This document shows, in pieces, positions 17,811 through 52,372 of a stretch of 64,000 nt of DNA; within the stretch, counting starts at the first letter, position 1, and each line of letters starts with the position of its first letter. The stretch is taken from NCBI RefSeq assembly GCF_963921235.1, contig NC_086108.1, forward strand, positions 75,270,001-75,334,000. Direction: 5' to 3'. The DNA comes from Mobula hypostoma (taxonomy: Eukaryota). The position numbers were made by a program, and so were the translations under genes. The notes under the pieces were generated by a model. That model saw only the letters and a list, made by a program, of their open reading frames with translations, was not told the origin of the DNA and searched no databases.

Positions 17811-18358
17811 TGCCTGTATATTTGTTACTTTTCATGCTTCTGCTCTGATAGAGGGAACCCGTTCTTTCTCTTTATAAAACCTAACTGGTCTAATACATAT
17901 TTTCAGAGCTGTTTGCTTTTTTTTTTAGTTTTTATCATTTTAAGTTGTTTCTCCTTATTTGTCCATCTTCCCACGCTTTGCTGAACAAAGATCATTAATC
18001 ATGGCAGGGTCAGAGTATGCAGAGATCAGAAAGGTAAGTGATGTAAATCAGAATTCAAGGACATCCAGCAGAACTAACCAGATTCACAGTCTGAATTTAA
18101 CTCCCTTATTATGACACTAGCAGCCTTATTCTCCTGGTATGGCATTGTGATTTTAATTTAATTATACCCAAAAATAACCCATAGGGTAGCTTCCAGTCTC
18201 TGACTGAAAAGATTTGCTCAGTCACTTGATTTCCGTTAGGAATATACTGGAGTTAAGATTATTCTTCCCTCTCACTGTGACAGACTTTAATCAATAATCA
18301 CTCACCATTGTGATTGGCATATACTGTCTTTTAAAGGTAACACTCCTTTAAGACTCAG

Positions 18359-18564
18359 CAACAAGAAAATCTGCAGATGCTGGAAATCCAAGCAAAAGAC
18401 ACAAAATGCTGGAGGAACTCAAAGGCCAGGCAGCATCTATGGGAAAGAGTTAACAGTTGACACCGTGGGCCAAGCCCCTTCATAAGGACCCGAAACATCA
18501 ACTGTACTCTTTTCCATAGATGCTGCCTGGCCTGCTGAGTTCCTCCAGCATTTTGTATGTGCTG
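18359..18564. mobile_element. Palindromic double-pLTR PLE mini-element with 12-bp TSD
   Basis: Inverted arms around 18480; TSD tttaagactcag at 18347-18358 and 18565-18576. Confidence 0.85.
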
Positions 18565-20514
18565 TTTAAGACTCAGAATGTGATATACCGTGATATTTGT
18601 TGTTGTGTGGCAGGAGTACATTGCAGTACACAATAATAAAAACTGTGAACTACAGTAAGTATATACTGTACATTAAATAGTTAAATTAAATAAGTAATGC
18701 AAAAAAGTAATGAGGTAGTGTTCATGGGTTCAATGTCCATTCAGAAATTTGACGGCAGAGGGGAAGAAGCTGTTCCTGAATCATTAGTGTGCTGAGTCTA
18801 AATAAAAATATTACCATTATTTGTTGATTCTACACAGAGCACAGCAGCACATTTAATGGGATTAAAATCATCCCATTCCTTGTTTATTTGGATCCTACCA
18901 AATAATGTTAATAAATAAAGGAGATATGTTTATACTTAATAAAGAAAATAAATTATACAGCTCATGCTTTATGCTATTTCCTGTTGTGTGCACTACTTTG
19001 GAATGGAACAAAGTTGTTGCGTAGTCTTCTGTTCTGTTTCAATGTATGGGGCCTCCCAGATATCCCCCAGAGTATCTTAACCCAGGGCGTGAAGGAAGTG
19101 CTACTGACCTAACGGATGGAAGCAGGTCTCTGCTCACGAAGCCTTTGAGGTGCTGAGGCATGCATTGTAATGGATGGAGGCAAAACAAAAACATAGAAGT
19201 TCTTGCAGAGGACAGTCACTGACATTACCCACTGGTTCCACAATGAAACCAAAGACCTCAGATCAAGCCCTAAGTTATGCAGAGGACCTTTACAGGCCTG
19301 TATAGGGTTAAGAGTTCAGTATGGCCTTATTAAACTTAAATACATTCACTGCGTGCCTGAAAGCACAACAAAATACAAGAAAAAAGTTCTAGGTCAATTC
19401 AATGTATTTTTAAATAATGGATATTGCTTTAAATATTCACATTTTCATAAACACACATTATTTTTCTTAACTGTGTAAATTTACAGAGCCTGTAAGTATT
19501 TTGTTGTTAAGCTAAGCAGGGTGATACAATAGGATCACAAGCTGGAATTCCAGTCTTCATGCTCATAGTTATCACTGACCTCACTTTTTGTGTTATAAGG
19601 AGTAGTCCTTAACAGACTGAGTACTGGACGATTAGTTGCACCTCTCAACAGTGGCGAGATACCTTTTGGCTGGAAAACAAGGCAGCGTGTCAGAGGATTT
19701 GGGGGAAGGTTGGTGGTGAGGTGATGAGGTGGTGAGGGAAAGAAGCTGGAGAGGTGCTAAACTAATCTGGTCACTTCAAAGGACAAAATGGTAGATACAA
19801 CAGACCAAAAAGGAATGTCATCAATAGGGAATGGGTTTGTCCAAAATAAGTTAGTCCTGTATTTCATCAATTCCCCCTGTCAGAGGTGAAGATTTCATGA
19901 CTGGTCTATTCCAATATAGAAAGGTCATGCTGCGATTATCAATATATTTAGCCCAACTGAAAACTCGAGATAAGGACAAGAAGGATTTCTATACCAAATC
20001 CAAGGTTTGCATTCAATCTCAGGGTTATGAAAGATATAAACCTCTGGAAATGCACGGTAGATAAGGTGAGAGTCGGGAAAGCTAACTCCAACAGAATCTT
20101 CCTTCTGACATATTGCATAGAGTCCTGTGGCCACCATGTTTAACTTAAGAGACCAGCACAGGTCTTCATGGCAACAGCTACAATCCAGGCTCTTTGAGAA
20201 TATCGTTTTCCAAGGAAAAACCAGAAGCACATCTACATAGACTGTACCATGACAGGTAATCATTGACTATTGGATTGACCAACATTTAATCTGCTCTGTT
20301 ATCTCTGCCAAAATTGGCTACATGACAGTGACAGCTACAGCACCTCTTAGAAGTGAGAGAGAGGTATATAGGCCAAAGATTGGAGAGAGAAACAAATAAG
20401 AGAGAACTGCTCAGAGTTTCATTGACATCTTCTGTTGGACAATCTTGAGCAGTAATGGAAGCAAATTGCTCATTGCCTGCCAAGATGCATTATTAACATT
20501 TGAAAGATATTTCA

Positions 20515-32059: not shown

Positions 32060-32097
32060 CAGTCGACATTTCAGGCCAAGACCCTTCTTCAGGGCTG
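32060..32097 (-). ncRNA. Minimal type-I hammerhead ribozyme motif (near intact)
   Basis: Minus strand cagcc-ctgaaga-agggtcttggcct-gaaat-gtc-gactg. Confidence 0.72.
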
Positions 32098-33163: not shown

Positions 33164-34789
33164 CATTGCCTATAAAAAGTATTCACTCCCCTTGGAAGTT
33201 TTCATGTTTTATTGTTTTACAACATTGAATCACATCGGAGTTAATTTGGCTTTTTTGACACTGATCAACAGAAAAAGACTCTTTCATGTCAAACTGAAAA
33301 CAAATCTCTACAAAGTGATCTAAATTAATTACAAATATAAATAATACAATAATTGATTGCATAAGTATTCTCCCCCTTCAAGTCAGTATGTAGTAGATAC
33401 ACATTTGGCAATCGCAGCCTTGAGTCTGTGTGGATAAGTCTCTATCAGCTTTGCATATCTGGACTCTGCAGTTTTTCCCATTCTTCTTTACAAAACTACT
33501 CAAGCTCTGTTAGATTGCTTGGGGGTCATGAGTGAACTGCCATTTTCAAGTCCGGTGACAAATTCTCAATTGGATTGAGGTCTGAAATCTGACTGGGCCA
33601 CTCCAGGACATTAAATTTGTTGTTTATAAGCCATTCATTCGTATGTCATTTTGGCTTCATGCTTGGGGTCATTGTCTTGTTGGAAAAAAATCTTCTCCCA
33701 AGTCATAGTTCTCTTGCGGACTGCATCAGGTCTTCCTCCAGGAATTCCCTGTATTTTCTGTATTCATTTTATTCTCTACTTCACAAGCCTTCCTAGGCCT
33801 GTTGCAGTGAAGCAGCCCCACAGCATGATGCAGTCACCACCATGCTTCATGGTAGGAATGGTGTGTTTTTGATGATGTACGGTGTTTAGTCTGATGGCCA
33901 AAATGATCAATTCTGGTTTCATCAGACCATAGAACTTTCTTCCAGCTGATTTCAGAGTCTCCCACATGCCTTCTGGCAAACTCTAGCCCAGATTTCATAA
34001 GAGTTTTTTTTCAACAGTGGCTTTCTCTTTGCCACTTTGCCACTTTCCCATAAAGCTGCAACTGCTGAAGTAGCTGGGCAACAGTTGTATGTGCAGTCTG
34101 TCCCATCTCAGCCACTGAAGCTTGTAACTCCTCCAGAGATGTCATAAGTCTCTTAGTGGCCTCCCTCACTAGTCCCCTTCTTGCACGTTCAATCAGTTTT
34201 TGAAGACGGTCTACTCTATGCAGATTTAAAGCTGTGCCATATTCTTTCCATTTCTTGATGATTGACTTAACTGTACTCCAAGGGACATTTAGTGGCTTGG
34301 AAATTTTTTTGTATCCATCTCCTGACTTGTGCTTTTCAATAACCTTTTCGCAGAGTTGTTTGGAATGTTCTTTTGTCTTCATGGTGTAGATTTTGCCAGG
34401 ATACTGAACAACCAGCAGTTGGAGCTTCCAGATACAGATGTATTGTTACTACAATCAATTGAAATACTTTTACTGCACACAGGCCTCTAAAAACAGATCT
34501 CCATTTAACTAATTATGTGACTTTTAAAACCAATCAGCTGCACCAGTGATAATTTCTTGTGTCATATTAAGGGGGGGGGGGGTGAATATTTATGCAATCA
34601 ATTATTTAGTGTTTTATGTTTGTAATTAATTTATATCACTTTGTAGAGATCTGTTTTCACTTTGACACAAAAGTTTTTTTCTGCTGTTCAGTGTCAAAAA
34701 ATCTAAAAAGTCCATTGTGATTCAAACTTGTAAAACAATAAAACATGAAAACTTCCGGAGGGAGGGTGAATATTTTTTTATAGGCATTG
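33164..34789 (-). mobile_element. Tc1-family DNA transposon, Passport-like, with both termini but an inactivated transposase
   Basis: TA on both sides; ~210-220 bp IR/DR-type TIRs; MKTKEHSKQLCEKVIEKHKSGDGYKKISKPLNVPWSTVKSIIKKWKEYG and [16 protein letters not shown]. Confidence 0.93.
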
Positions 34790-37299: not shown

Positions 37300-38985
37300 A
37301 GATCAGGCAGCATCTATGGAGGGGAGTAAACAGTCAAAAATGTTTCCAACTAGACCCTTTCATCATAACTGGAAAGGAAGGGGGAAGAAGCCAGAACAGG
37401 AAGGTGGAGGAGCGGAAGCAGTACAAGCTAGTAGCTACAAACAAGAGGAAATCTGCAGATGCTGGAAATCCAACCAACACACACTTTTCTTTCTCAATGG
37501 GAAGGCAAGAAGATGAGGTGAGAGAGAGAAAAGGGGATGGGAAATGTTGAAGGAGGGGAAGCGGTGGGAGGCATTACCAGAAGTTTGAGAAATTGATGTT
37601 CATACCATCAGGTTGGAGGCTACCCAAATGGAACATAAGGTGTTGCTTCTCCAACCTAAGTGTGGCCCCACCACGACAGTAGAGGAGGCCATGGATAAAC
37701 ATATTGTAATGGGAATGGGAAGTGGAATTAAAATAGGTGGCCACTGGGAGATCCCACTTCTTCTGGCAGACAGAGTGTAGATGCTCAGCAAAGCGGTCTC
37801 CCAATCTACGTCAGGTCTCACCGACATATAGGTGGCCGCACTGGGAGCATCGCACACAATATATGAATCCAACAGACTTACAGGTGAAGTGTCGCCTCAC
37901 GTGGAAAGACTGCCCGAAATGTTGACTATACATTTTTCCATAGATGCTGCCTAGCCTGCTGAGTTCCTCCAGCATTTTGTGTGTGTTACAAGCTGGCAGT
38001 TGATAGGTGAAGCCAGGTGAGGGGAAAGTGGATGAAGTTAGAAACTGGGAGGTGATAGGTGGAAGAGGTAAAGGGCTGAAGAAGAAGGAATATGATAGGC
38101 GAAGACAGTGCCTCATGGGAGAAAGGGAAGGGGGAATAGAATCAGAGCGAGGTGATGGGCAGGTGAGGAGAAGGGAAGTGGTGGGGAGAGCCAGAATGGG
38201 GAACGGAAAGAAAAGGGATTATGGGTGAGAAATTACCAGAAGTTAGAGTAATTGATGTCATGTCATCAGGTTGAAAGCTACACAATGGGGTCACTCTCAG
38301 TCTCTCCGACCTGAGAGTGACCTCATTGTGACAGAGGAGGAGGCAATGAACCAACATATCAGAATTAAAATGGGAAGTTAAATTGAAATAGGTGGCCACC
38401 AGGAAATCCCACCTTTTGTGATGGACTGAGCGAAGGTGCTTGATGAAACAGTTCCCCAGTTTATGTCAGGTCTCGCTGATATTTTAGAAGCAGCACCAGA
38501 AGCACCAGATACAGGAGATAACTTGGAGCTGAAGAGTTGCCTCGCCTGGAAGAACTGCTTGGGCCTTGAATGCCGGTGAGGGAGGAGGCGTAGGAGCAGG
38601 TGTGCATTTGTTCCACTTGCAAGGGGAAAGACAAGTGGACAAGGGGGTCACGTTAAGAGTAATGCCTGCAGAAAGTAGAAAGGGGAGAGTACTGGAGCAA
38701 GGGAAAGGTGTGTTTAGTGGTAGGATCCCACTGAAGAAGGCAGAAGTTATGGAGAATGATGTGTTGGGTATGGAGGTAGTGGGGATGCAGGTAAAGACAA
38801 GGGGAGCTCTACCTTGTTATTGGCAGCATGAAGATGGGGTGAGGGTGGATATACAGAAAATAGGCTGCACCAGTAGTAGGGGAAGAGAAACATCATTCTT
38901 TAGGAATGGAAAGCCTCATTCTGAGAACAGATGTGGTGGAGATCGAAGAACTGGATTTCCACATCTGCACAATCTCTTGTGTTTA
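37300..38985 (-). mobile_element. Penelope-like cluster: a PLE (~37435-37986, with inverted 5' pLTR) inserted into another PLE
   Basis: GIY-YIG: FTCKSVGFIYCVRCSQCGHLYVGET..RFAEHL..LGSLQPDGMN; imperfect duplication tacaagct(a/g)g(t/c)ag near 37422 and 37987. Confidence 0.85.
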
Positions 38986-41900
38986 GGAGATCAGAGAATG
39001 CCTGTTGAAATTCCAACTCAACTTTATCCCAAAACAACTCTGGATTTGCTAAACCTGTAAACTATATTGCGTAGCAGTGTACATGCAAGTATTTTGAGCC
39101 TACATGTTGGCTCCATTGTTGGGTTTAAATAAAATTCTGAAAGCTACTTTATTGAAACATTCCACTTCCCCACCCCAACAAAATTAACTCCAATGAAGCA
39201 AAGGTTAAATCAGGTGAACAAGCTGCTCTATAAATTGAAAAAATAAATGCTGATTTTCCTCCATTATCTGCAAGAGGACAAAAGAAACGCTCATTATTCT
39301 TGGACAGCTCTCTGGTTATTTGTCCATAATAGCATGCAGCTTTTTGACAAGTTTACAGGATGCAAGTTCAGCCAAAGCTCATAATTTGTATGAGAAAATG
39401 TTTTCTTTCTGCATTCCAAAATGCATAACCCTTTCAATACAGTAGATTAGGACAGACAACATGTTATTTATGCTGATTGTATAAGGTAAGAAATACATAT
39501 TCACAGGAAGTTTCCACTAACTTGTAAGGTTCTAATTTAACTACAATTGGATATTGCTTCAATTTAAGTAAACTGAAGAAAATGTTTTCAACCATTCAAA
39601 AAAAAGCTTCTGAGACAAACTATCACACTGGGAGATGTTAATTCATATTGAAAATATTAATGTATTTTTCTGCAATAAAAAAGAATTAACTTAAAACCAT
39701 AATAGGTAAGACCATTCTGTCCCACAAGCCTTCTCCACCAATAAAACCTGACAGATATGTAAAATGGTGCAACAAAGTATAATGTGAAGAAAGGCTTGTA
39801 TTTGTAGAGTGATGCTCAGAATATTTCCAAAGAACTTTCATCCAATTACATGCTTTGTGAGGTAGGATGACTCGTTAACGTGGATATTTTTCCCACAAGC
39901 TTCCACAAACAACAATGTGATTATGATCTGTTACTTGGCTCTTTATGAAAGCATATTGAAAGACAAATATCTTCCAGAACTCCAGCAATAACTCCTTTTC
40001 ATAGCACCACAGGATCTTCCACATTCATCGAAGGAGGATAAACAGCTTTGGTTTAACATCACACCAATAAGATGCTATCTCTTGCAGCATTTCCCCAGCA
40101 CAACATGTGAATGTCATGATAGATATGTTTATACCTCTGGGGTGGGTCTTGAACATGACCACACCACAGCCACCATTGCCGTAGTCTCCACCACACTTCC
40201 CTGAATCTCCAGGTAAGGCAGCAACAGACAGAAGAGCCATAAAAGAATCACTCCCATATAGTTTGCAAGACAGAATAGATCATTTGATGCAGTATATTTG
40301 TATCCAATGCTTGCTAAAGTAAACCAAAAACTCATCCAAATTTACCACTCTTTCTGCCTCATATAATTATGCTTTTTTTTTGATTTATCCAAAGGTACAA
40401 TAGTCTCTCTCTGAACTGCTAATGGCAAAGCTCCAGCAATCCTCTGTGAAAAGCAATTTCCCAAGAGTATCATCTATCATCTCTGGCATCCCTCATTCTG
40501 ACTAAATATAGGAATTGAAGGACTTAGTTAAAGGGAAGTGCCACTTATTATTGATAGACTGTCAAAGCACACAATTAGGAGGAAAAAAAATCTATTTTTA
40601 TTGTTTTTCCACTTCAAAAGTGCAAAAGATCAAAACACAGGTCTGCCCTCTGACAATTATGACTGACAAGCATAGCAAAAGGGATGTTCTATGTATTCAT
40701 GCAGAGCCTTCTGGGTGTAAACAGAAATGGACAGCTCCAATTTTTCTTTTCTCAAATACAAAGCATGGTTAAACCCATATCCCTGCCAGATCCTTGAGGT
40801 CCGGGGACTAAAAAGTGGAGTTCAGCTTAAGAATTTATTTAGATTGCTATTACCCTAAGCTATGACTGAACATATGTGAGTAGATTGTTTGAATTATGTG
40901 TAACATGCTGAGTTAAGTCAATGATGTACCTGCTTACATGATAAAGTTAAACCATATGTGGAGTCATGTAAACAGGTCCAAATTGCATTTTGTTTTCAGC
41001 TGTATTATATGTCACGACTTGTTGGCAATGAAATAGGAAAACAGTTACCCACTTGTGCTATCTGAAACCAGATGCATCAAACTCAATCCCTATGAGACAA
41101 GCTAGAATGTGCAGTGTTAAATGATGCAGAACACTGCATATCTGTCGCTGGTTAACTGCATCAGTTCTGTTTTATAAAAATAAGTGAATAACTTATGCTT
41201 GCATTTTAAAGAAACCGTGTTGATTGTGCAGCTGGACCCTGCATTTCAGCCAACCTCAACAAAAAATGTTCTGTGGTAAACGTTGAACAATACTGAGACA
41301 TGACTTAGCTATGTTATGTTTTGCAACTCCAGAAATTAATTGGAAGTAAAACGCAGGAGCCTGGGGTACTCGTATACTTACTTTGTTTTACTGTAGTGAA
41401 ACATGCATATATGACGTGATAGCGTAATGACTTATGCCATTCACGTACTTTTACATGAACTCGTCATGAATGATGTAGACAATAAAGAATACTTAATCAA
41501 ACAATATATTTACAACATTACTCAAATATTACTGAAATATTAAATACACAACATATATATGTATATATATGACAATGTCTTTGCTGACAAGGAGTGTCAC
41601 TGGGCTTGAAAGATGAGCATTGTGGCGATGAAACAATCTCAGGTTCTGGAGTCTCCTCTGTGGTGGTTGCAGGAGTTGACTTTGGAACTGCAGGAAGTGG
41701 TTCTGACAACCTTGGCCTCCTTTCTTCTCTAACAATTGACTCTGCTCTCCTCAACAAATGGATGCACCATCTCCAGATGACATCAGACACAATCTCCACT
41801 GGGTGAGACAGTGGTCCAGTTCTATCATTAATCTTTCCAAGTACCTACTTTCGATCACCTCTCTAGTCCCCGGCCAGGACTGCTTGTCCCGGAGTGAAAC

Positions 41901-42498
41901 ATCAAACTTCCTTGTTTGAGGAAACCCTCAAATTGTCTCAGTTGTTTGTCCTGCACACTCCTTCTGACTTTTGGTTTGAGGAGATCCAAGTATGAGCACA
42001 AAGGACAACCCAGAAACAGCATAACTTATAAGTTGTTGATTGCAGAGTGTGCTGCATTGCAATATGCAAGGAGGAAATTGGCAAGTGCTAGTGTAGTGTA
42101 TTCTGCTGATATTGCTCGCAGTATGTTATTCATAGAGTTATAGAAAAGTACAGCACAGAAATGGGCCCTTTGGCCCATCTAATCCATGCCAAATCATTTA
42201 AACTGCCTACTCCCACCGACCTGCACTGGCACCATAGCTCTCCATACACTACCATCCATGTGCCTATCCAAACGTGCCTTAAATAATGAAATCGATTTCG
42301 CACCACTTACGCTGGCAACTCATTCCACACTCTCATGACCCTCGGAGTGAAGAAGATTCCCTTTATGTTCCTCAAACTTTTCACCTTTCGCCCTTAATCC
42401 ACGACCTCTATCTGCAGTCCCACCCAGACTCAGTGGAAAAAGCCTGCTTGCATTTACCATATCTATACCTCTCATAATTTTGTTTACCTCTATCAAAT

Positions 42499-42723
42499 AA
42501 AAGTTGCTGGTGAACGCAGCAGGCCAGGCAGCATCTCTAGGAAGAGGTGCAGTCGACGTTTCAGGCCGAGACCCTTCCTGACGAAGGGTCTCGGCCTGAA
42601 ACGTCGACTGCGCCTCTTCCTATAGATGCTGCCTGGCCTGCTGCGTTCACCAGCAACTTTGATGTATGTTGCTTGTAACTTTTATGTGTGTTGCTTGAAT
42701 TTCCAGCATCTGCAGTATTCCTG
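42499..42723 (+). mobile_element. Young palindromic PLE-pLTR mini-element with 19-bp TSD
   Basis: 78-bp arms 42500-42577 and 42583-42660 with 2 mismatches; TSD ttgtttacctctatcaaat at 42480-42498 and 42724-42742. Confidence 0.92.
42578..42610 (+). ncRNA. Hammerhead ribozyme catalytic core (5' strand of stem I lost at the inversion junction)
   Basis: ctgacga-agggtctcggcct-gaaac-gtc-gactg. Confidence 0.75.
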
Positions 42724-43494
42724 TTGTTTACCTCTATCAAATCTCCTTTCATTCTTTGATGTTCCAGGGACTAAAATCCTAACCTATTCAATCTTTCCAT
42801 ATAACTCTGGTTCTCCAGACCCAGCAACAGCTTTGTAGATTTTCCCTGCACTCTTTCAACATTATTTTCATCTTTCCTGCGGGTAGGTGACCAAAACTGC
42901 AAACAATATTCCAAACTAGGCCTCACCAATGTCTAATACAACTGCAACATAACATCCCATCTCCTGTACTTAATACTCTGATTTATGAAGGCCAATGTGC
43001 CAAAAGCTTTCTTTATGACCCTATCTGCCTGTGACGCCACATTCAATGAATTATGGACCTGTATTCCCAGATCCCTTTGTTCTACCCCACTCCTACTCAC
43101 AGGCCGTTCACTGTGTAAGACCTACCTTTGTCGAAGAGCAACACCTCGCACTTGTCTGCATTAAATTCCATCTACCATTCTTCAGCCCATTTTTCCAGAT
43201 GATGCAGGTCCTTCTGCAAGCCACGATAGCCTCCTTTCTGTCTACTACACCCCAGTCTTGGTGTCATCTGCAAATTTGCTGATCCAGTTCACCACATTAT
43301 CATCCAGATCACTGATATAGCATTTTGTAGGTAGCCATTTAGGGATGATGGGGTTGATGTAGATGCACTAAAGTAATTGGGGGGGGGGAATTCCGAGGCA
43401 GGGTATTTCTGTTGCCCTATCTGAGTAGATCCTCCTTAAGGGTGGCCTTTCCTGGTACAAATTTACTTTTGCCTAGGAGGACCAAAAGGAGGGA

Positions 43495-43770
43495 CTGTTA
43501 GGGGCTTTTGGGGGTTAGGAATATAGCAAATAACTTCAACAACTAACTTCAACCACCAATCTTCAGATCTGAATATGAACTGTAGACTAAATTTAAAATG
43601 AGGCTCTGAATAATGCATCCCTAAGAGCTGTGAACCACAGCTAATTGGATGGCCAAACAATGTTGATTTAAATTTAATCTACAGTCTATGTTTAGATCTG
43701 AAAATTGGTGGCTGTAGTTAGTTGTTGAAGTTATTTGCTATATGTCTTAACTCCAAAAATACTCTAACAG
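43495..43770. repeat. Imperfect ~100-bp inverted repeat with ~70-bp spacer
   Basis: atatagcaaataacttcaacaactaac...cagatct..ctgtaga.taaatttaaa mirrored at 43667-43770. Confidence 0.85.
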
Positions 43771-47314: not shown

Positions 47315-47868
47315 TATACAGTCAGTGGCCACTTTATTGGGTATATCTATACACCCGCTCGTTAATGCAAATATCTAATCAGCCAATCATGTGGCAGCAA
47401 TTCAATGCATCAAAGCATACAGACATGGTTGAGGGGTTCAGTTGTTGTTCAGTTAAAACCTCAAAATGGAGAGGAAATGTGATCTACGCAGCACTGACCG
47501 TAGAATGATTGCTGGTGCCAGAGTGATCTGAGAATCTCAGAAACTGCTCATCTCCTGGGATTTTCACACAGTCTAGCATTTACAGAGAATGGTGCAAAAA
47601 AACAAAGACATCCAGGGAGTGTCAGTTCTGTGGGTGAAAATACCTTGTTACTGAGAGAGTTCAGAGAATGGCCAGACTGGTTCAAGCTAACAGGAAGGCA
47701 ACATTAACTCAAATAACTATTTCTTGCAACAATGGTGTACAGAAGAGCCTCTCTGAATGCACAACACATCAAACCTTGAAGTGGACAGGCTACAGCATCA
47801 TAAGACATACACTCAGTAGCCACTTTATTAGGTATAGGAGGTACCTAATAAAGTGGTCACTGAGTGTA
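47315..47868 (+). mobile_element. Non-autonomous Tc1-derived element (same family as 16380)
   Basis: cagtggccactttatt / aataaagtggtcactgagtgta TIRs plus an internal TIR copy; MARLVQANRKATLTQIT..NGVQKSLSECTT. Confidence 0.82.
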
Positions 47869-48397
47869 CAGTATAGTATTTGCCAGAATTGCTTTTGAGC
47901 AGGATTTAAACTTCATATGTATATTCTTCCTGAAACTCTTGAAACTCTATTAAAGCAAAGGAATTATTCACAGGGGTCATTAAAAGTCAAGTGTACTGTA
48001 AGGTCTGTCACTTTGAGTTAGATATTCCTCTTAATGAAGCATTCCTTGTTATATTCTGTAAGAGTCTCAGTTAGTCATGTTAGAAAATGACTTTGAGTTA
48101 TTTACAAGCTTGCAATAGTTCCATCCTTCAAGCCTGTGACACATTTTTATCTTTGATCTTAAAGTTTGATGCTTATAATTGTTCTATTAAATTCGACAGT
48201 GATAGATGGGTCTGAATTTCTTAAATTCTTCCTTTCACTTGCTTATAAAGTTGCTGAGTTCAACATTTAATATGACAGAAAATTGTGCTTCTAGTATTCC
48301 AAAAGCTTAAATTAACATACATTAGTGTCCACACAAAACAAACTACTGTGCTTTCCGCATAAAATAGCAACACAAGTTTCCAATTCTAAGTATATAA

Positions 48398-49909
48398 CGA
48401 GGGGTGATTGATAAGTTTGTGGCCTAAGGTAGAAACAGTCAATTTTAGAAAACCTAACACATTTATCTTTCAACATAGTCTCCTCCTACATTTACACACT
48501 TAGTCCAGCGGTCGTGGAGCATACGGAACTTGGACCTCCAGAAGTGTCCACAGCAGAGGTGATTGATAAGTTCATGGCCTAGGGTAGAAGGAGATGACAC
48601 GAAGCTGGATGGCAGTGTTAGCTGTGAGGAGGATGCTAAGAGGATGCAGGGTGACTTGGATAGGTTGGGTGAGTGGGCAAATTCATGGCAGATGCAATTT
48701 AATGTGGATAAATGTGAAGTTATCCACTTTGGTGGCAAAAATAGGAAAACAAATTATTATCTGAATGGTGGCGGATTAGGAAAAGGGGAGGTGCAACGAG
48801 ACCTGGGTGTCATTATACACCAGTCATTGAAAGTGGGCATGCAGGTACAGCAGGCGGTGAAAAAGGCGAATGGTATGCTGGCATTTATAGCGAGAGGATT
48901 CGAGGACAGGAGCAGGGAGGTACTACTGCAGTTGTACAAGGCCTTGGTGAGACCACACCTGGAGTATTGTGTGCAGTTTTGGTCCCCTAATCTGAGGAAA
49001 GACATCCTTGCCATAGAGGGAGTACAAAGAAGGTTCACCAGATTGATTCCTGGGATGGCAGGACTTTCATATGAAGAAAGACTGGATGAACTGGGCTTGT
49101 ACTCGTTGGAATTTAGAAGATTGAGGGGGGATCTGATTGAAACGTATAAAATCCTAAAGGGATTGGACAGGCTAGATGCAGGAAGATTGTTCCCGATGTT
49201 GGGGAAGTCCAGAACGAGGGGTCACAGTTTGAGGATAAAGGGGAAGCCTTTTAGGACCGAGATGAGGAAAAACTTCTTCACACAGAGAGTGGTGAATCTG
49301 TGGAATTCTCTGCCACAGGAAACAGTTGAGGCCAGTTCATTGGCTATATTTAAGAGGGAGTTAGATATGGCCCTTGTGGCTACGGGGATCGGGGGTATGG
49401 AGGGAAGGCTAGTGCAGGGTTCTGAGTTGGATATTTCAGCCATGATCATAATAAATGGCGGTGCAGGCTCGAAGGGCCGAATGGCCTACTCCTGCACCTA
49501 TTTTCTATGTTTCTATATAGCTCTCATTATGTGCACATGCAGTTCAGCTCTTCGGGTGATTATACAGAAAGTTTGAAGTTAATAACTCATCGGGGTGATT
49601 GATAAGTTCACGGCCTAGGGTAGAAGGAGATGAGTTATCAACTTCAAAATATCTGCATTATCACTGAAAGCGTTGAACTGCATGTTCATGTAATGAGAGC
49701 TGTATAATTCATCTCCTTCTACCCTAGGCCATGAACTTCTCAATCACCCCTGCTGTGGGCACTTTCTGGAGGTCCGAGATCCGTATGCTCCACGACCGCT
49801 GGACTAAGCGTGTAAATGTAGGAGGGGACTATGTTGAAAAATAAATGTGCTAGGTTTTCTAAAATTGACTTCTTCTACCTTAGGCCATGAACTTATCAAT
49901 CACCCCTGG
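48398..49909. mobile_element. Foldback mariner-like MITE (~590 bp without the CR1 insert)
   Basis: Termini cgaggggtgattgataagtt / aacttatcaatcacccctgg-ta; long inverted arms; terminal motif repeated 5 times. Confidence 0.85.
48593..49516 (+). mobile_element. Young 5'-truncated CR1 (RT C-terminal part) inserted in the MITE
   Basis: DDTKLDGSV..WQMQFNVDKC..LVRPHLEYCVQFWSP..RTRGHSL..; (ttctatgt) tail. Confidence 0.96.
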
Positions 49910-50437
49910 TATATCAACAGCCACACAATGTCTGAGAAATATTTGTTCTCCTAGATCTAGTTATTGCTCTTTATTTTGGAATGACTGAGCTGTGATGATC
50001 ATATTCTGTGCCAGGGGTTGGGATGGGTCTTCTGTTGGCTCATTGGTGGCTTCAGTCTCCTTTCTACAATCTTCATCAGAAGATGTCTCCTCAGTGCTCA
50101 TTTCAAAGGATTTAGATTCCTGCTCACGTTATGGTTGAATTCTCATGTTATCACTGGATTTAGGTGGTGACATCTCCTTAGCTGTTCTATTCTTGAAGGA
50201 ATCTTACTTTTCCTTCTCTCTCTCATCTGTCAATTTATTTCCATCAAAAATTTGGTTCAAAGGTACTTCAATCTCTGGATTGCACTAGCAATGAACCATA
50301 ATTTTATTTTATTTCTACATGTCAAGTGGTGGAGGTCCACCTAACCAATGTTTCTTCTGATTTTTTTCAAAAGCAATTTGGCTAAGTTCATAACATTCTC
50401 TTCCTTTTCAATGGAATGTGGAGAGTTTAATTATGAT

Positions 50438-51197
50438 CAACACACACAAAACGCTGGAGGAACTCAGCAGGCTAAGCAGCACCTATGGAAAAGGGTACAG
50501 TTGACGTTTCGGGCAAATACACCTTATCAGGACCGGAGATAAGGTGAAAGAGGAAAAATAGGAATGGGGTATGGTGAAGGACGAAGGTGGGAGGGGGGCA
50601 TTACCGGAATTTCGAGAAATTGATGTTCATGTTATCGGGTTATCCAGATGGAATATAAGGTGTTGCTCCTCCAACCTGAGTGTGGTCTCATTGCGACAGT
50701 AGAGGAGGCCATGGACTGACATTTCAGAATGGGATTTGGAAGTGGAATTCAAATGGGTGCCTACTGGGAGATTCCGTTTTTTCTCGCAGACTTAGTGCTC
50801 GACAAAGCAGTCTCCCAATCTAGGTCGGATCTCACTGATATGCAGGAGACCACAAGGGGAGCACCAGATACAATAGATGACCCCAACAGACTCACAGGTG
50901 AAGTGTCGCCTCACTTGGAAGGACTGTTTGGGGCCCTGAATGGCAGTGAGAGAGGAGGTGTAGAGGCAGGTGTAGCACCTGCTCCACTTGCAAGGATAAG
51001 AGCCAGGAGGGAGATCAGTGTGCAGGAATGAATGGACAAGGGAGTCACGCAGAGAACGATCCTTGCGGCAAGCTGAAAATGGGGGAGGGGAGGGGAGAGA
51101 AAGATGTACTTAGTGGTGGGATGCCTGCCTGCCGAATTCCTCCAGCATTTTGTGTGTATTGCTTGAATTTCCAGCATCTACAGATTTTCTCTTGTTT
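50438..51197 (-). mobile_element. 5'-truncated PLE with 3' pLTR and inverted pLTR at the other end
   Basis: pLTR 50438-50535 (-), GIY-YIG region, inverted pLTR 51121-51197 (+). Confidence 0.85.
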
Positions 51198-51589
51198 GTA
51201 AGTTCAGTTATGATGTTGCATGAAAAAATTCTCATATTGTCACAAACTTTGCAAATTCATCTGTAATGAATTATGGTTGTTGTCTTTTACAGTTTTGCCT
51301 GGAATACTACAGTATATCTAGCAAATCGAATATTCAGCTTGTTAATGACAGCTGAAGGCATGGATGAATTAAAACATTCTATTTCCAGGATGTAGGAAAA
51401 ATAAGTAGCTGCTGCCAGGTAATTTTGGGCCAAGATCTTCATGACCTTCACCCAAGGTCTATCTGGTACCTCATATTCAAGCATAGGCCCATTTTTGTTG
51501 TCCTGCATCCATAGATCTGCACATATTACATTTTCATGCCAGATGCCACACATCTGTGTTCATTCCTTGCAACTGAAAATGGTCTTCCT

Positions 51590-51722
51590 TCCTGATGAAG
51601 GGTCTCAGTCCGAAATGTCAATTGTTTACTCTCCTCCATAGATGCTACCTGACCTGCTGAGTTCCTCCAGCATTTTGTGTGTGCTGCTTGAATTTCCAGC
51701 ATCTGCAGATTTTCTCGTGTTT
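51590..51722 (+). repeat. Solo PLE pLTR with hammerhead core at 51592-51624
   Basis: ctgatga-agggtctcagtcc-gaaat-gtc-aattg. Confidence 0.8.
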
Positions 51723-52279
51723 GTGTTCACTCCAAGCCAGTCCAGTGGTTCCAGAGCTCCAATCAAATAACCTTTTCTCTTTGAATCACAGTCTTGATGG
51801 GAACTCCAACCACACTAATTATTAAACATCCATTTAAAATAGCCCCACATTATTATTTTCATATTTTCACCAATACCCCTTAATTCACCTCCATTTGGAG
51901 CAATTTACAGTATCAAATTGACCTATAAAGCATTACATCATTGGTATGGGGGAACAAAGAGGTGTACCTGGATGAAATAATGTGATGACAACAAGAACTG
52001 GCAATACCACATAGACAGTGATTGAAGTTGAATCTCAGTACTGCAAAGCAGTAGTGCTCACCATTCCAGTGTGTTGGCCCTGTTCTCTACCAGATGGAAT
52101 AACTAAATACACTCTAGTATTTATCTCCTCAAAGCTTTTGGTATCAACAAATTTTGTCTCTGAAGAGAAGCTCTGAGCTCATCTTGAAGGCGGAAGTACA
52201 TTATAGAATGAATTTTATGAGAAATTCCAATTGCTTCTCTATCATTCCTCTCACAAAAACTATTCTTAAAAAAGTTGCA

Positions 52280-52372
52280 GCAACACACATCAAAGTTGCT
52301 GGTGAACGCAGCAGGCCAGGCAGCATCTCTAGGAAGAGGTACAGTCGACGTTTCAGGCCGAGATCCTTCGTT
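52280..52372 (-). repeat. PLE pLTR fragment, same young subfamily as 42499
   Basis: catcaaagttgctggtgaacgcagcaggccagg...agtcgacgtttcaggccgagatccttcg. Confidence 0.85.

Follow-up and report, generated by a model that had tools for sequence, protein, structure and literature searches.

A pLTR-only hairpin in a LINE remnant of Mobula hypostoma as the smallest form of the PLE insertion layout

How does a retroelement end come to lie paired with its own antisense copy, and is such a hairpin a mobile unit or a by-product of insertion? This question is raised by positions 42480-42742 of the window, the 64-kb stretch of Mobula hypostoma DNA that was analysed. The sequence-only reading had proposed that the locus is a ribozyme-bearing non-autonomous unit mobilised in trans by PLE machinery and had named, as a fallback, extreme 5' truncation of a PLE with an inverted pLTR.

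The locus contains a 225-bp insert (42499-42723) between exact 19-nt direct repeats. We confirmed the coordinates of the hairpin described earlier: two arms with a 78-bp stem core (42500-42577/42583-42660) and two mismatches (42548/42612 and 42537/42623) enclose a 5-nt loop (42578-42582), CTGAC, the first letters of CTGACGA. Taken to their full extent (42497-42577 and 42583-42663), the inverted arms are 81 nt each, 96% complementary and 5 nt apart, and a third mismatch falls on the outermost arm base (42499/42661). The computed RNA fold of the hairpin had a free energy of -177.3 kcal/mol (z -24.3), and 0 of 200 shuffles was equally stable. About 60 nt of the insert lie outside the right arm. 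A 21-nt unit occurs twice (42655-42675 and 42677-42697; 22-nt spacing, 90% alike), and the insert holds no ORF and no upstream pLTR sequence. The parts of the locus are given below, with pLTR positions counted from C3 of the hammerhead core (42578 = 0).

42480-42498, no strand: left TSD copy, an exact repeat; family contigs depart before 42497
42499-42577, minus strand: left arm, an inverted, tail-less, 5'-truncated pLTR piece from +5 to about +83, without CUGA
42576-42577, no strand: junction, a TC overlap common to both arms that forms the 2 bp closing the 5-nt loop
42576-42675, plus strand: right arm, a direct 5'-truncated pLTR piece from -2 to the end point of tail-less siblings
42578-42610, plus strand: minimal type I hammerhead motif by box order, as defined in the accessible text of PMC4209133
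42655-42697, plus strand: tandem repeat of the 21-nt unit at the tail-less end point, absent from many family copies
42695-42729, plus strand: PLE tail of about 35 nt, at this end only, recognised from sibling tails and from the accessible part of PMC8557442
42724-42742, no strand: right TSD copy, an exact repeat
42130-43300, minus strand: host, a decayed LINE ORF2 C-terminus with its 3' end, recognised from the translated flanks

The claim of an exact 19-nt TSD held as well. The copies at 42480-42498 and 42724-42742 are identical over all 19 nt, and the repeat is the sole exact 19-mer direct repeat at 31-300 nt spacing in the window; the best score in 150 random placements was 9, compared to 19 at the insert. 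The last 2 nt of the left copy (AT, 42497-42498) and the first 6 nt of the right copy (TTGTTT) also match the element, giving a 19-nt duplication with short shared ends. For comparison with public data we used the contigs of 4 of 23 runs (X1, X5, X9 and X17). Family contigs depart from the locus before 42497 (56, 37 and 32 contigs in three runs), before 42576 (134 in X1, 95 in X5, 27 in X9 and 25 in X17), behind 42675 (41 in X1 and 8 in X9) and before 42677 (37, 24, 7 and 22 across the four runs). These departure points indicate that the element match extends into the end of the left TSD copy, that the two arms overlap by 2 nt (TC) at the junction, and that the 21-nt repeat is often absent from the family. 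Sibling tails end with TTGTTT or close variants. Together with the shared bases, this shows that the insert is bounded on both sides by 3' ends of the element, which have 2 nt in common with the target on the left and 6 nt on the right.

The flanks of the insert encode adjacent parts of a LINE ORF2 C-terminus, corresponding to residues 127-179 and 191-256 of the stop-free frame 48563-49573. Since these parts are adjacent in ORF2, the insert interrupts its host without loss. Thus, the proposed CR1 host is a LINE ORF2 remnant according to its translated flanks, and its CR1 type is presumed. The insert appears to be young, because its TSD is exact and its arms are near-identical. In public contigs of a second organism, a piece of the flank was found with 1 difference in 76 nt. 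Among the 15 joints listed from public contigs (447 in total), three that skip the CR1 sequence and two with additional letters between the joined parts resemble paralogues.

In a domain scan of 150 of the 304 stop-free stretches of at least 62 aa we found no clear host-gene domain; the eight matches were seven of transposon type and one ALKBH8_N, which we take to be a LINE remnant. A Pfam search with nine decayed window fragments gave no useful match. Tc1/mariner transposase remnants lie at 34014-34445 and 47638-47895. On the minus strand to the left of the host, 41600-42130 is a decayed coding-like stretch with no Pfam match that presumably represents an LTR retroelement remnant. An AT-rich hairpin at 43506-43758 (92-nt arms, 86%, 69-nt spacer) is unrelated to the pLTR and may be a MITE. 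At 48397-49910, nested inverted repeats with outer arms of 147 nt at 93% enclose a LINE fragment with a 337-aa stop-free frame.

The insert sequence matches a dozen other sites in the window, and in several of these copies a decayed ORF precedes the pLTR. One of these frames, 50795-51109, lies before a pLTR that is approximately 71-79% like that of the hairpin; it matched five ray proteins from Hypanus sabinus and Mobula hypostoma with E values of 5e-37 to 5e-26. Of the five, three matched GIY-YIG at E 0.0005-0.002, short of the Pfam cut-off, and one matched RVT_1. These upstream ORF matches identify the repeat as the pLTR of an endonuclease-bearing PLE. The PLE origin proposed in the sequence-only reading is therefore supported through sibling pLTRs that stand behind an ORF with GIY-YIG- and RVT_1-bearing relatives; the RT/GIY-YIG evidence comes from these sibling copies and not from the stub, and no ORF of the young subfamily itself was seen. 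The hairpin is a member of this younger subfamily, as is the copy at 52270-52371, which is alike at 93-95%. By eye, a CX4CxxC linker was seen in three of the matched proteins (P0001, P0003 and P0004). According to the accessible text of PMC8557442, a CX2-5CxxC linker between RT and EN marks the Neptune and Nematis clades, a definition that the sibling linker would fit.

The abundance of the family is very high, with 75,745 contigs from run X1 aligning to 901 bases. The summed depth in this run was 2.7-8.2 million over the arms, and three contigs in exact agreement with the flanks reached 12-13.5; these values are depths and not copy numbers. Viral contigs gave no match with the hairpin-junction pattern, the subfamily 21-mer or the protein-based search, and the 21-mer had no match in prokaryote genome contigs. 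In metagenome contigs, the junction pattern had seven matches, all of them unrelated short hairpins in GC-rich, bacterial-looking DNA, and the junction itself was present in none. A protein-based scan of MAGs returned one distant PLE (L008:43-1290, 49% to P0003) on an Endozoicomonas MAG contig, with a hammerhead motif about 130 nt after the ORF and without an inverted pLTR; it is likely to be host DNA in the MAG bin.

The top strand of the insert carries the catalytic boxes of a hammerhead, CUGAnGA, GAAA and the UH site, in order, and the bottom strand has no core. The parts are CUGACGA (42578-42584), an extra A, helix II (42586-42597, with G.U at 10.1/11.1), GAAA (42598-42601), a GUC with the predicted cut after 42605, and the 3' strand of helix I (42606-42610). 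The hairpin retains 2 bp of helix I, because its junction replaced the 5' strand of this helix; the copy at 2598 has 5 bp and that at 32092 has 4 of the 5. The minimal type I hammerheads of metazoan PLE pLTRs described in the accessible text of PMC4209133 share the CUGAnGA box, the extra base before helix II, GAAA, the palindromic 15.2-16.2 and the GUC site; they differ in having 4-5 bp in helix I and a G-C pair instead of the 10.1/11.1 G.U of the present subfamily. The same text already reports motif pairs on opposite strands, 100-700 bp apart, whereas the insert holds a single core with no cis partner for a dimer. At gathering score, Rfam had no match in the window, and at E up to 10 there were sub-threshold hairpin matches only. 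One of the candidate matches, the microRNA precursor family mir-3926, scored 50.6 bits against a gathering score of 82 and was alike on both strands, so we rejected it as a generic hairpin match.

In the predicted ensemble, the left arm pairs with everything from 42583 onward, and opening the core boxes alone would cost 14.6 kcal/mol in the computed fold. The sequestration of the ribozyme by the stem, claimed in the earlier reading, is thus seen in the predicted fold, but the motif is already incomplete (helix I of 2 bp) and leaves little to sequester. Because of this incompleteness, the modelled hairpin motif is not a ribozyme with a switch. The proposed long dsRNA stem, suggested in that reading as a Dicer/ADAR substrate, stands as a predicted fold on condition that the locus is transcribed: if a host transcript reads through, a 78-bp stem would form, as at many other such stubs. 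In run X17, for which the RNA label is a guess, a 1250-nt contig with a depth of 867 carries an antisense pLTR near its start; it is possibly a well-expressed transcript of another locus, and public contigs show neither the strand nor the level of transcription.

We delimited by eye 14 pLTR-bearing PLE insertions in the window. Four of them have a head-to-head layout (18361-18564, 37437-37987, the hairpin at 42499-42723, and 50438-51199), each with a tail on one end and its own distinct junction. The first (18347-18576 with flanks) is an older pLTR-only hairpin with an exact 12-nt TSD and an off-centre junction at -3/about +16. The insert at 37437-37987 (37422-37994 with flanks) is longer and lies inside another PLE copy. 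That at 50438-51199 (50424-51214 with flanks) joins a 690-nt tail-less arm (-600 to +94) to a 78-nt tailed arm (+54 to +132), and each arm holds sequence absent from the other. Two sibling inserts have exact TSDs of 12 and 15 nt, above the null maximum of 9, and the TSD candidates of 37437-37987 and 50438-51199 are at null level.

The composite of the hairpin and its junction had no second copy in the window, and none of the public pieces listed (8 per run; 163,798 in total) ran across the hairpin junction. Nine of the 15 listed joints (447 in total) were other antisense-sense arm junctions, all different; these nine are represented by 1-2 contigs per run with short sides. In run X1, other inverted junctions had depths of 48-109, up to about nine times the depth of the flank contigs (12-13.5), although depth is not copy number; because of this depth, some of them can recur or have been re-duplicated.

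The 5' ends of the short pieces, again placed by eye, cluster between -6 and +5 (8 of 12; 70-95 of 200,000 scans under a uniform null). Since 0 of 12 start within 3 nt of the ribozyme cut site (+28), we rejected the idea that ribozyme cleavage made the inner ends. That the short copies begin together at the hammerhead's 5' edge, rather than where it would cut, suggests a discrete end of the RNA or cDNA there. The RNA may begin in this zone, or an intron may end in it: the family sequence upstream of -2 is rich in pyrimidines and its last two letters are AG, and an intron of Drosophila virilis ends at helix I according to the accessible part of PMC4209133. Splicing as the source of the hairpin junction itself was rejected, as TC is shared by both arms and no fitting GT-AG join was found. 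Two further short copies deserve mention. The copy at 52270 has a tiny second piece at its tail-less end (52270-52290, compared with 42666-42685), and the 9 nt just beyond this piece are those with which the hairpin left arm begins, a 9-mer that occurs at only these two places in the window. The junction of this copy resembles the 21-nt repeat of the hairpin and is one base shorter; either the repeat was already present in a source copy or this small stem-loop is a favoured restart site of the enzyme. At 51555-51590, a direct short copy that starts at -2 is separated from its TSD candidate by about 23 nt of unexplained sequence.

Insertions of endonuclease-bearing PLEs are described in the accessible text of PMC8557442 and PMC3846280 as an inverted 5'-truncated copy, a partial tandem and a one-sided tail of 30-40 nt. 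The insert shows the head-to-head inverted 5' copy, a tail of about 35 nt at one end and, with its siblings, a variable TSD length. Compared with the complex PLE insertions of these sources, it shares the head-to-head inverted copy at the 5' end, the one-sided tail, the free-length TSD and the short junction overlap; it differs in that all its pieces are pLTR-only (80-150 nt), without ORF, and in a TSD of 19 nt instead of the 8-10 nt given for rotifer PLE copies. The fallback of the sequence-only reading, extreme 5' truncation with an inverted pLTR, therefore matches the published layout, of which the hairpin is the smallest form. Our literature search, which covered few subscription papers, returned no study of PLE hairpins in rays.

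How this layout arises is suggested by the purified PLE protein of an anole (PAc, Poseidon of Anolis carolinensis). As far as PMC11167929 is accessible, PAc cuts and extends both strands, two internal RNA start sites delimit the tail, the protein is modelled as a dimer, and ribozyme cleavage is dispensable. This behaviour predicts a tailed cDNA at one nick and a tail-less cDNA at the other, arranged head-to-head, and two-strand cleavage with two internal starts indeed fits the tailed and tail-less ends of the hairpin. The dispensable cleavage is in line with the 5' ends of the short pieces here, which avoid the cut site. Unlike PAc, the sibling ORFs have the CX4CxxC linker of Neptune/Nematis and not of Poseidon, and the ends of the hairpin have 2-6 nt in common with the target, while the same text describes in vitro starts of PAc at non-homologous sites.

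On this basis, we consider the hairpin to be probably a one-off insertion of two head-to-head PLE ends, from RNA that was copied at both nicks and cDNAs that were joined via the 2-nt overlap. The enzyme would nick both target strands, 19 nt apart. The bottom-strand nick would prime at the tail end and the top-strand nick at an internal, tail-less start region. Both cDNAs would stop near the 5' edge of the hammerhead, the usual stop of short copies of the family, after which the two short cDNAs would join head-to-head via 2 nt and repair would fill in the second strands. Since short copies usually stop at -6 to +5, near-symmetry of the hairpin can arise without fold-back. The product is predicted to be a dead stub, because it has no upstream pLTR sequence and no ORF.

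The alternative is that a single tail-primed cDNA reached -2, folded back through its 3' end (2 bp, 5-nt loop) and was extended along itself, after which the product joined the other nick by a short overlap. A centred 5-nt loop with a 2-bp closure is exactly the product expected from such a fold-back, the inverted arm has nothing that is absent from the direct arm, and self-priming has been proposed for head-to-head PLE palindromes in the accessible part of PMC3846280. However, a snap-back on 2 bp is weak, and the arms differ at two internal sites. At one of these, 42623, the right arm has the base of eight older copies covering the site, and the left arm and the copy at 52270 differ from it, which may be taken as a modest hint of two source RNAs; the two mismatches could also be later mutations, one of them a CpG-type change. 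Off-centre junctions in two other head-to-head inserts likewise argue against fold-back. The insert at 50438-51199 cannot be a fold-back product and needs two RNA-templated cDNAs, because its arms hold sequence that they do not share. We therefore regard fold-back as possible but rather unlikely for the hairpin. Both two-nick priming and fold-back imply a one-off by-product.

Much less probable is that transcripts of the hairpin itself are inserted anew in trans, which would make it a non-autonomous, retrozyme-like unit. It has retained the tail and the start region, pLTRs can act in trans (PMC3846280) and non-autonomous PLE derivatives are known (PMC8557442; bioRxiv 10.64898/2026.07.22.740005), as stated in the accessible text of these sources, and a few other junctions are present at several-fold depth. 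Nevertheless, no two of the four head-to-head inserts in the window have the same junction and the listed joints add nine further, different ones; both outer ends of the hairpin resemble fresh priming sites on the present target, helix I has been lost, and the ribozyme is not repeated head-to-tail. In view of the differing junctions, the lost helix and the missing repeat, the claim of a ribozyme-bearing unit mobilised in trans is not supported. Equally slim is the chance that the hairpin is the founder or a member of a small non-autonomous family whose RNA is re-inserted in trans by a Neptune-type enzyme and whose transcripts feed siRNA or editing against the PLE family.

Known classes of small elements did not fit the locus. 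MITEs have inverted repeats at their very ends and a short fixed TSD; here, the arms consist of 3' ends of a retroelement, about 60 nt extend beyond the right one, and the TSD is 19 nt. Non-LTR retrozymes, as described in the accessible part of bioRxiv 10.64898/2026.07.22.740005, are likewise non-coding, derived from pLTRs and equipped with a type I hammerhead motif, but they consist of head-to-tail units, of which two or more in a row each carry a complete ribozyme. The parts of the hairpin lie head-to-head instead, and its top strand has a single, incomplete core and its bottom strand none. LTR retrozymes have direct LTRs, a type III hammerhead and a 4-bp TSD according to the same source, in contrast to the inverted arms, type I order and 19-nt TSD found here.

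The least probable reading that we retained is that a longer inverted PLE pair lost its centre via a 2-nt overlap, owing to palindrome instability: longer head-to-head inserts are present at 37437-37987 and 50438-51199 and microhomology deletions are known in PLE copies (accessible text of PMC3846280), but such a loss is unneeded for inner ends within the -6 to +5 zone, where plain short copies also start, and the exact TSD suggests that little time has elapsed. The TSD, the one-sided tail and the arm differences argue against an assembly artefact.

To summarize, the hairpin as a single locus matters little, since it is one of very many PLE stubs and its layout is already published. Questions about the template of the arms and the start sites call for a genome-wide count rather than for one locus. 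Young hairpins with an exact TSD can distinguish two RNA templates, that is, two-nick priming by a dimer, from one folded-back cDNA, and this template question concerns the step of PLE integration that is left open in the accessible text of PMC8557442, PMC3846280, PMC11167929 and PMC4209133.
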